Of a DNA stretch of 28,099 bases, positions 23,254 through 24,172 are shown piece by piece (position 1 is the stretch's first letter; each line of letters starts with the position of its first letter). The stretch comes from Escherichia coli (GTDB lineage: Bacteria; Pseudomonadota; Gammaproteobacteria; Enterobacterales; Enterobacteriaceae). Made by a program: the position numbers and the translations under genes. The notes beneath the pieces were generated by a model. That model was not told where the DNA came from, made no database searches, and worked only from the letters and a program-made list of their open reading frames with translations. The stretch is taken from NCBI RefSeq assembly GCF_003334815.1, contig NZ_QOWO01000046.1; one strand, 5' to 3'.

Positions 23254-24172
23254 ATATTATCACTTACTGGCGGCTCATACTGAGCTGGTTAATGCTGTGC
23301 ACACACAAACAAGCAATTCCATTTGTAATGTGCCTCCCTGGCAGTTTCATCCGGAACCCGGACGAAAGTAAAAATGCATATGAGTTGCACTAAAAAAGCG
23401 ACTCACATTGTTCCGTTATAATGCCTGAAGTAGATCACAGAATATATCTTCAGGGATCGCATATCTATTAAGTTACTCACTCTTTTCTATTTATGACATG
23501 CGCGTGTTTGTATAAATGTAAATGTGAGTCCTTGTTCCACTCTCGTGCAGCATCGCTGGTCATACGCGAACACGTACCAACAGCAATGGTGAGGCGGCAT
23601 CAAGAGCAGGGATCCGTCATTTATCCGAGCATTTTACCCCAAAAACCTTTTATTTATAAGGGTCATTGCGAATTATCTGATGCAAAGTTATGTTATGTTA
23701 GGCAAAGTAATCTTCTATTATTAATAAGCACATCAAAACCTTTTTGAATATTAAATAATAATTAATTAGCATCATCCTCATTCATTAATTCCGCTTAACA
23801 ATAGTTTCACACCTTGCCCCCATTGCGACACCTCGGAAATCATCACGCAGTTAAACTCTCCGTAATGAGGAAATATCATCATCGCGTTTCATTAGTGAAT
23901 TCTTAAATGAGGCATTTTCACACAATTATCTTACAGATAAAAAAACCAGACTTACAATTAAGAATCAGAACAATTCACTATATAACATTGCATGTAAAGC
24001 ATATACACCTCATTATTTTGTCATTATTAAGTTATTAACAGCACAATCGAGCCTTCCCCTCTGGCAAAATCTTATTCTGCAGACCTTCAAAACACCGTCC
24101 TGGGGGAGTACATTGTTCTAAGCTGACTTCCACGGCAGGGAGTGGCGATAACAGCAAAAAAGGTCAAGATTC
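23254..24172. promoter_or_regulatory. Long AT-rich intergenic region carrying the lrhA promoter/leader (minus strand) and the alaA promoter (plus strand)
   Basis: 919 bp without a convincing ORF, very AT-rich in its centre (for example 23690-23770 and 23930-24010). Individual promoter elements not assigned. Confidence 0.45.

Follow-up and report, generated by a model that had tools for sequence, protein, structure and literature searches.

The intergenic region between the divergently oriented genes lrhA and alaA of Escherichia coli most probably represents the combined regulatory region of these two genes and holds no additional gene, a reading to which we assign a probability of roughly 85%. 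In the stretch of 28,099 nucleotides analysed here (designated the window in the following), this gap covers positions 23254-24172 (919 bp) and lies between lrhA, which occupies 22315-23253 on the minus strand, and alaA, at 24173-25390 on the plus strand. Its GC content (0.384) lies below those of the window as a whole (0.506) and of lrhA and alaA (about 0.50). The gap is also the longest between long open reading frames (ORFs) in the window, the second longest being that between nuoA and lrhA (630 bp). A first-pass annotation of this DNA, which had described the gap as unusually long and AT-rich, was thus correct, and the two tracts that it had singled out as extended AT-rich stretches (23690-23770 and 23930-24010) show GC contents of 0.21 and 0.28, respectively. 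The segment 23154-24272 is 100% identical to E. coli K-12 MG1655, and genome coordinates of that strain are obtained by adding 2383388 to the window coordinate, which places the gap at genome positions 2406642-2407560; the RefSeq annotation of MG1655 contains neither a feature nor a gene inside it. The region is present in all 5,426 of 5,426 complete E. coli genomes, with an identity of at least 95% in all except one.

As a repressor, LrhA acts at the top level of flagellar synthesis, and the gap decides how much LrhA is made. The "920 bp-long lrhA-alaA" spacer has already been singled out among long spacers and was grouped with csgD-csgB and nanC-fimB as long spacers holding many transcription factor sites (Shimada et al. 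2014). A recent LrhA-CRISPR paper (NAR 2026) contains nothing on the lrhA-alaA intergenic region. Most of the gap is already explained by the published leader of lrhA, by the published inputs of small RNAs (sRNAs), Hfq, CsrA, and transcription factors, and by the noted spacer length, and since these main facts are in the literature, the present analysis offers little that is new for the field. What it adds is a coordinate map of the features within the gap (Table 1), evidence that the architecture (two promoters held about 470 bp apart at a fixed distance, and a long lrhA leader) is kept across the Enterobacteriaceae, a short list of conserved motifs as obvious targets for mutagenesis, and, as a small addition, a hairpin that is conserved in the leader predicted for alaA.

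Table 1 Features of the lrhA-alaA intergenic region in window coordinates
Feature	Position	Strand	Basis and remarks
lrhA 5' untranslated leader, 371 nt	23254..23624	-	Published length and primer start; about 40% of the gap
UhpU pairing site in the ribosome-binding region, mRNA CGCCAGU	23266..23272	-	Published compensatory mutation; 7-bp duplex with UhpU ACUGGUG read by eye
CsrA CLIP-seq peak_226	23283..23369 (genome 2406671-2406757)	-	Potts et al. 2017, supplement
Predicted RprA/McaS seed-pairing site including CACAGC (23294-23299)	23292..23305	-	Predicted site
RNA 3' end in the leader (Term-seq), 50 nt before the AUG of lrhA	23303 (genome 2406691)	-	
Abundant 80-nt 5' fragment of the leader	23545..23624	-	Term-seq 3' end at 23545
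lrhA sigma-70-type promoter: -35 TTATAA (23654-23659), 17-bp spacer, -10 TAAAAT (23631-23636)	23631..23659	-	
Conserved box TCAGATAATTCGCA, about -56 to -43 of the lrhA promoter	23667..23680	-	Kept in most genera
Conserved AT-rich blocks upstream of the lrhA promoter, including CTTAACAATAGTTTCACA	23714-23725, 23746-23768, 23781-23812	.	Conservation and alignment
AT-rich spacer, 250 bp, sequence unconserved, length conserved	23813..24063	.	
Predicted alaA promoter: -35 TTCAAA (24086-24091), 17-bp spacer, -10 TACATT (24109-24114)	24086..24114	+	Conservation
Hairpin ACUUCC-ACGGCA-GGGAGU in the predicted alaA leader	24126..24143	+	Kept across the family

For the comparison, 80 Enterobacteriaceae genomes at species level supplied the lrhA locus, their LrhA proteins being 74-94% identical. 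The alaA gene is divergent from lrhA in 78 of these species, the gap ranging from 764 to 1140 bp and in most cases from 905 to 1013 bp; all counts given below for promoters and leaders refer to 79 sequences, i.e. those of 78 other species and that of E. coli. Alignment of the gap revealed conserved blocks, which correspond to the start-proximal part of the lrhA leader (23254-23325), the lrhA promoter with a box just upstream of it (23631-23685), the AT-rich blocks listed in Table 1, and the alaA-proximal region (24064-24172). Two -35/-10 pairs with conserved hexamers and conserved spacing, together with conserved blocks upstream, give the region the appearance of a divergent sigma-70 promoter region. 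In E. coli, 472 bp separate the -10 elements of lrhA and alaA; over the 79 sequences this distance ranges from 352 to 480 bp (median 471 bp).

The lrhA promoter shows a TTATAA -35 element in 64 of the 79 sequences, a 17-bp spacer in all of them, and one of the -10 hexamers TAAGAT, TAGGAT, or TAAAAT in 68. The conserved promoter therefore places the transcriptional start site (TSS) at 23624 (genome 2407012), 7 nt downstream of the -10 element, in agreement with the published start: the lrhA 5' UTR was reported to be 371 nt long (Melamed et al., PMC10578931), and primer SM079 of the same study, with which the lrhA fusion fragment opens, begins with ATAAATGACGG, corresponding on the minus strand to window position 23624, which lies 371 nt away from the AUG. 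The published UTR length, the primer start, and a promoter present in 79/79 sequences all identify the leader as part of the lrhA mRNA transcribed from a mapped start. Leaders inferred in the same manner for the 79 sequences are 334-587 nt long (median 397 nt), and as about 290 nt (23330-23623) are poorly conserved, it is the presence of a long leader that is kept and not most of its sequence. Functional support for a role of the gap for lrhA comes from a TraDIS study of ST131, in which hypermotility resulted from intergenic Tn5 insertions that had been assigned to lrhA. As a separate observation, IS1 is found inside the lrhA leader in two of the listed complete genomes, NT1N31 from pig (about 23497-23507) and the laboratory strain KMS2001 (about 23388-23400). 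These insertions parallel the Tn5 hypermotility insertions in ST131; by separating the lrhA promoter from its gene, IS1 probably lowers LrhA and raises motility.

A long structured lrhA leader had been among the proposals of the first-pass annotation. Its length stands, as described above, whereas its structure gains little from folding and, in the conserved start-proximal part, nothing from covariation. That the leader is a structured cis-regulatory RNA of the riboswitch or thermosensor type, in which the fold rather than trans-acting factors controls translation, appears very improbable to us. The E. coli leader does have a minimum free energy of -112.1 kcal/mol (z -2.4), a value reached by 3 of 100 shuffled sequences, and the RNA 3' end located 50 nt upstream of the AUG carries an intrinsic terminator score of 3.75 next to a Rho score of 1.06, which is not significant (Adams et al. 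2021, supplement 3). Yet a scan of the segment 21600-24400 against Rfam with E values up to 10 returned chance-level matches and none that was credible, and RNAalifold found 0 consensus pairs in the conserved proximal 139 nt, so that the covariance analysis across Enterobacteriaceae suggested as a check yields no support for a conserved fold in this part of the lrhA leader. A hand-drawn hairpin of two helices upstream of the ribosome-binding site had 77.8% of its cells paired, compared with 75.3% in shuffled controls, and showed no excess of compensatory changes. With neither covariation nor a curated family to sustain it, and with about 290 nt unconserved in sequence, the conserved content of the leader comes down to short linear motifs (GGA, CACAGC, and GUAAGUGA).

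Several of these motifs coincide with positions at which sRNAs or CsrA are known or predicted to bind. Compensatory mutations have shown that UhpU pairs directly with lrhA when it represses an lrhA-lacZ fusion, which ArcZ and RprA repress as well (PMC10578931). In addition, lrhA was recovered by MAPS with RprA, which induces decay of the lrhA mRNA (Lalaouna et al.). Direct pairing demonstrated by compensatory mutation is thus available from the literature for UhpU, and the evidence for ArcZ and RprA consists of reporter or MAPS data. Comparison of the M1 gBlock with the wild type identifies the lrhA-M1 mutation as a C to G exchange at 23269, position -16 relative to the AUG, and UhpU therefore acts at the ribosome-binding region. 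RNAduplex favoured a bipartite UhpU duplex over 23269-23290 rather than the 7-bp duplex read by eye (Table 1). The UhpU site is overlapped by GUAAGUGA, a conserved element next to the AUG of lrhA.

The positions of the ArcZ, RprA, and McaS sites are predictions of the present analysis. The hexamer CACAGC (-46 to -41) is almost invariant in the 79 sequences and is the complement of a GCUGUG seed common to RprA and McaS; local duplexes predicted at this site involve UUGCUGUGUG of RprA (-13.0 kcal/mol) and CUGCUGUGUGUACU of McaS (-15.5 kcal/mol). For ArcZ, the best local prediction (23331-23347) pairs UUUCCCUGG with CCAGGGA and overlaps the first of the GGA motifs described below. A duplex scan with windows of 24 nt gave several sites of nearly equal energy in the leader for each sRNA, and such a scan alone therefore cannot fix the sites. 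Unconstrained RNAduplex runs of the leader against the sRNAs were discarded, as they returned meaningless duplexes of the whole molecules. McaS gives the highest number of RIL-seq chimeras with lrhA, yet has no effect on lrhA, and inhibition of McaS was raised as a possibility by the authors (PMC10578931). As an observation in its own right, the leader sequence GGAAUUGCUUGUUUGUGUGUGCACAGC (23294-23322, minus strand) resembles the sequence GAAUUGCUGUGUGUAG of RprA itself, in the same sense and immediately 5' of CACAGC; this may be a coincidence or a local self-pairing element.

The CsrA peak in the leader (Table 1) contains two GGA motifs, CCAGGGAGGCA at 23331-23341 (-88 to -78) and AAAUGGAAUUGC at 23313-23324 (-71 to -60). 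Both GGA triplets recur across genera, many of which have GGAUGCA at the first position, so that at least two GGA motifs occur here together with crosslinking in vivo, as expected for a CsrA-bound leader. The ribosome footprints of lrhA and the RNA of its coding sequence were flagged as changed in the genome-wide data of the same study (Potts et al. 2017). Crosslinking of CsrA to the leader is a direct observation, and CsrA presumably exerts a regulatory effect there. Two further observations concern the other end of the gene. Another CsrA CLIP peak, peak_225 (22257-22360, minus strand), spans the lrhA stop codon and the 3' UTR, and a Term-seq 3' end of lrhA (genome 2405672/3, window 22284/5) is located upstream of a GC-rich hairpin at about 22229-22275 and not after it.

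RNAs of 150 and 350 nt bound to Hfq and assigned to "ig-lrhA-alaA" were first classed as intergenic, and a transcript of about 1.5 kb that is positive with the upstream probe accumulates in an hfq mutant (Bilusic et al. 2014). An "orphan" Term-seq 3' end at genome position 2406933 (window 23545) is listed twice by Adams et al. (2021, supplement 1) and defines the 80-nt 5' fragment of Table 1. These RNAs could in principle stem from an independent trans-acting sRNA with a promoter and a 3' end of its own, of which the "ig-lrhA-alaA" RNAs would be the products rather than pieces of lrhA mRNA. Their recovery by co-immunoprecipitation with Hfq, the abundance of an orphan 3' end at a distance of 80 nt from the TSS of lrhA, and the McaS chimeras that leave lrhA unregulated speak in favour of such a gene. 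However, every fragment lies on the lrhA strand, downstream of the one conserved promoter and with the TSS of lrhA in common, and the 1.5-kb transcript hybridises to the upstream probe. A promoter/terminator consensus scan found no terminator-like site in the gap, the sole such match being located inside alaA, and none of the Rfam families matched; in the promoter part of the scan the counts were at chance level and both conserved promoters were missed. The 3' end at 23545 falls 3 nt past a stem-loop that is not followed by a U-run, and therefore looks like a product of processing or trimming and not like a terminator. Moreover, conservation is lowest in the 80-nt segment, with an identity of 0.55-0.59 even among other Escherichia lineages. 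An own promoter, a terminator, and a conserved RNA are thus all lacking, and the fragments are best regarded as products of processing or decay of the leader, which makes a separate sRNA gene quite improbable. The unannotated sRNA that had been considered for this region accordingly finds no support, the Hfq-bound and Term-seq RNAs being lrhA leader.

Within the reading of the fragments as leader products, a function in trans can be imagined. The 80-nt piece (end at 23545) and a piece of about 320 nt (end at 23303) are both consistent with the Hfq-bound species, and they might act as a sponge or decoy for McaS, RprA, ArcZ, and possibly CsrA, which we consider unlikely but worth stating. If it were true, lrhA transcription would feed back on the sRNA and Csr networks controlling motility and biofilm formation, and sponging of McaS by the leader fragments would account for McaS chimeras without regulation of lrhA. 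Independently of the lrhA leader, the nuoA-lrhA gap (21685-22314) is long and AT-rich as well (GC 0.39). A very abundant "orphan" Term-seq 3' end therein (genome 2405082, window 21694, minus strand), 10 nt upstream of the nuoA start codon (Adams et al. 2021), points to a stable RNA from the nuo leader.

The possibility that the gap encodes a small protein or an upstream ORF (uORF) is scarcely credible. ORFs of 25-84 aa are present on both strands; those of interest are an 84-aa ORF (23493-23747, plus strand), a 28-aa uORF (23264-23350, minus strand), and a 40-aa ORF (24035-24157, minus strand), the last of which has similar ORFs in 41 of 78 species. This 40-aa ORF, which starts with TTG, was rejected as a candidate: it is antisense to the alaA promoter and overlies this promoter and the leader, its codon positions are equally conserved (0.637, 0.647, and 0.620), and its frame is disrupted by stops or shifts in most genera, so that its seeming conservation is a by-product of the conservation of the promoter and leader DNA. 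No other species has an ORF similar to those of 84, 43, 38, 34, and 30 aa, the start codon ATG of the 28-aa uORF is unconserved, and the RefSeq annotation of MG1655 has no gene here. The gap contains 14 ORFs with a length of 25 aa or more, and the reading frame of none of them is conserved beyond the conservation of the DNA. The earlier statement that the gap contains no convincing ORF is thereby confirmed, and the suggestion of an unannotated small protein made alongside it loses its basis.

Between the two promoters, the DNA falls into two parts of different character. The 190 bp proximal to lrhA are particularly AT-rich (GC 0.29) and contain, besides the box TCAGATAATTCGCA, three conserved blocks (Table 1); their position is fixed, as 74 of 79 sequences have 135-140 bp between the lrhA -35 element and a TTAACA anchor. 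The box TCAGATAATTCGCA resembles the RcsAB/RcsB box TaAGaatatTCctA, and RcsB may be the factor. The pattern TNAGAN4TCNNA has its single match in the window at this box, with 2.65 matches expected by chance, and the Rcs-like pattern alone therefore proves nothing. Likewise, CTTAACAATAGTTTCACA resembles a direct repeat of the OmpR type. Most likely, the conserved AT-rich blocks bind transcription factors; the assignment of individual blocks to RcsB, OmpR, or Lrp is tentative and follows from resemblance to consensus sequences. Binding of regulators to the region is documented by ChIP of Lrp on lrhA, of which Lrp is a direct activator, by an OmpR ChIP signal on the lrhA-alaA intergenic region, and by SELEX with sigma-70 holoenzyme and many transcription factors on the spacer (Shimada et al. 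2014); autoregulation by LrhA has been published as well. The ChIP and SELEX data and the conserved blocks agree with the multiple regulator binding sites that had been proposed from the sequence.

The adjoining 250 bp (23813-24063) are unconserved in sequence, their identity to E. coli having a median of 0.33 outside Escherichia, which is near random. Neither a conserved ORF nor a promoter-terminator pair was found in this segment. The median length of the segment is 249 bp, and the anchor lies 270-292 bp from the alaA -35 element in 74/79 sequences. An interpromoter length conserved despite a free central sequence suggests a spacing constraint, one possibility being that the length is kept by such a constraint within a nucleoprotein complex.

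On the alaA side, the predicted promoter has the -35 hexamer TTCAAA in 73 and the -10 hexamer TACATT in 72 of the 79 sequences; the spacer between them is 17 bp long in all 79 and variable in sequence. The TSS of alaA is predicted near 24121 (genome about 2407509), which would result in a leader of about 52 nt. Another candidate, TTAAGA-17-TATAAC, has been proposed by Shimada et al. (2014); placed by eye at about 23959-23987, it lies about 125 bp further upstream than the promoter predicted here. A literature search that included the TSS supplements for Shigella yielded no experimental TSS of alaA, the Shigella matches being spurious, and no link between alaA and GcvB was found in the literature. 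The six core pairs of the hairpin in the predicted alaA leader are standard in at least 89% of 76 distinct sequences, and five of them in at least 93%. Its basal pair covaries, occurring as AU in 48, GC in 14, and GU in 11 sequences, and another pair alternates between U-G and U-A; the G-U pairs among these speak for a helix of RNA rather than a palindrome in the DNA. The register of the hairpin is unique against slid controls, and its loop ACGGCA is near-invariant. For this hairpin, neither a match in Rfam nor a description in the literature was found.

Taken together, the following working of the region can be proposed. About 40% of the gap (23254-23624) is transcribed as the 371-nt leader of lrhA, which serves as a hub of post-transcriptional control. 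Here UhpU pairs at the ribosome-binding site of lrhA, as the compensatory mutations demonstrate, RprA and ArcZ, whose repression of lrhA has been demonstrated as well, may act via predicted sites 40-95 nt upstream of the AUG, Hfq binds the leader and destabilises the lrhA mRNA, and CsrA would act through the crosslinked segment with its two family-conserved GGA motifs. Because LrhA represses flhDC, these inputs to the leader would tune motility. The other approximately 500 bp would be untranscribed AT-rich DNA between the lrhA promoter and the predicted alaA promoter, composed of the lrhA-proximal 190 bp with position-fixed AT-rich blocks, most likely transcription factor sites including the putative Rcs-like box, and of the central 250 bp, which would function as a spacer of fixed length and free sequence. 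The alaA gene itself would be preceded by a short leader (about 52 nt), with the conserved hairpin near its 5' end.

In this organization, the lrhA leader resembles the 5' UTRs of rpoS, flhDC, and csgD, which likewise extend over several hundred nucleotides, precede the gene of a global regulator, and are points of convergence for several Hfq-dependent sRNAs. The likeness to csgD extends to the sRNAs, since RprA and McaS also target csgD, and to the long AT-rich intergenic region with many factors, by which the two were grouped by Shimada et al. (2014); the likeness to flhDC includes CsrA, which binds both the flhDC leader and the lrhA leader. In contrast to rpoS, the effects of sRNAs so far known on lrhA are all repressive, with no activating anti-antisense mechanism among them. 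Unlike the leaders of rpoS, flhDC, and csgD, that of lrhA has its conservation confined to the start-proximal approximately 100 nt, and its link to CsrA consists of CLIP-seq data. The lrhA fragments, being stable, having defined 3' ends, and co-purifying with Hfq, are similar to the 5' UTR-derived RNAs that Bilusic et al. (2014) and Adams et al. (2021) reported, but the 80-nt fragment differs from other Hfq-bound RNAs of this origin in being unconserved beyond E. coli. Stem-loops at the 5' terminus stabilise mRNAs such as ompA. The alaA hairpin, located 5-6 nt from the predicted 5' end and with a conserved stem, is reminiscent of this ompA type; it differs from it in the loop ACGGCA, which is almost invariant and thus suggests sequence-specific recognition.
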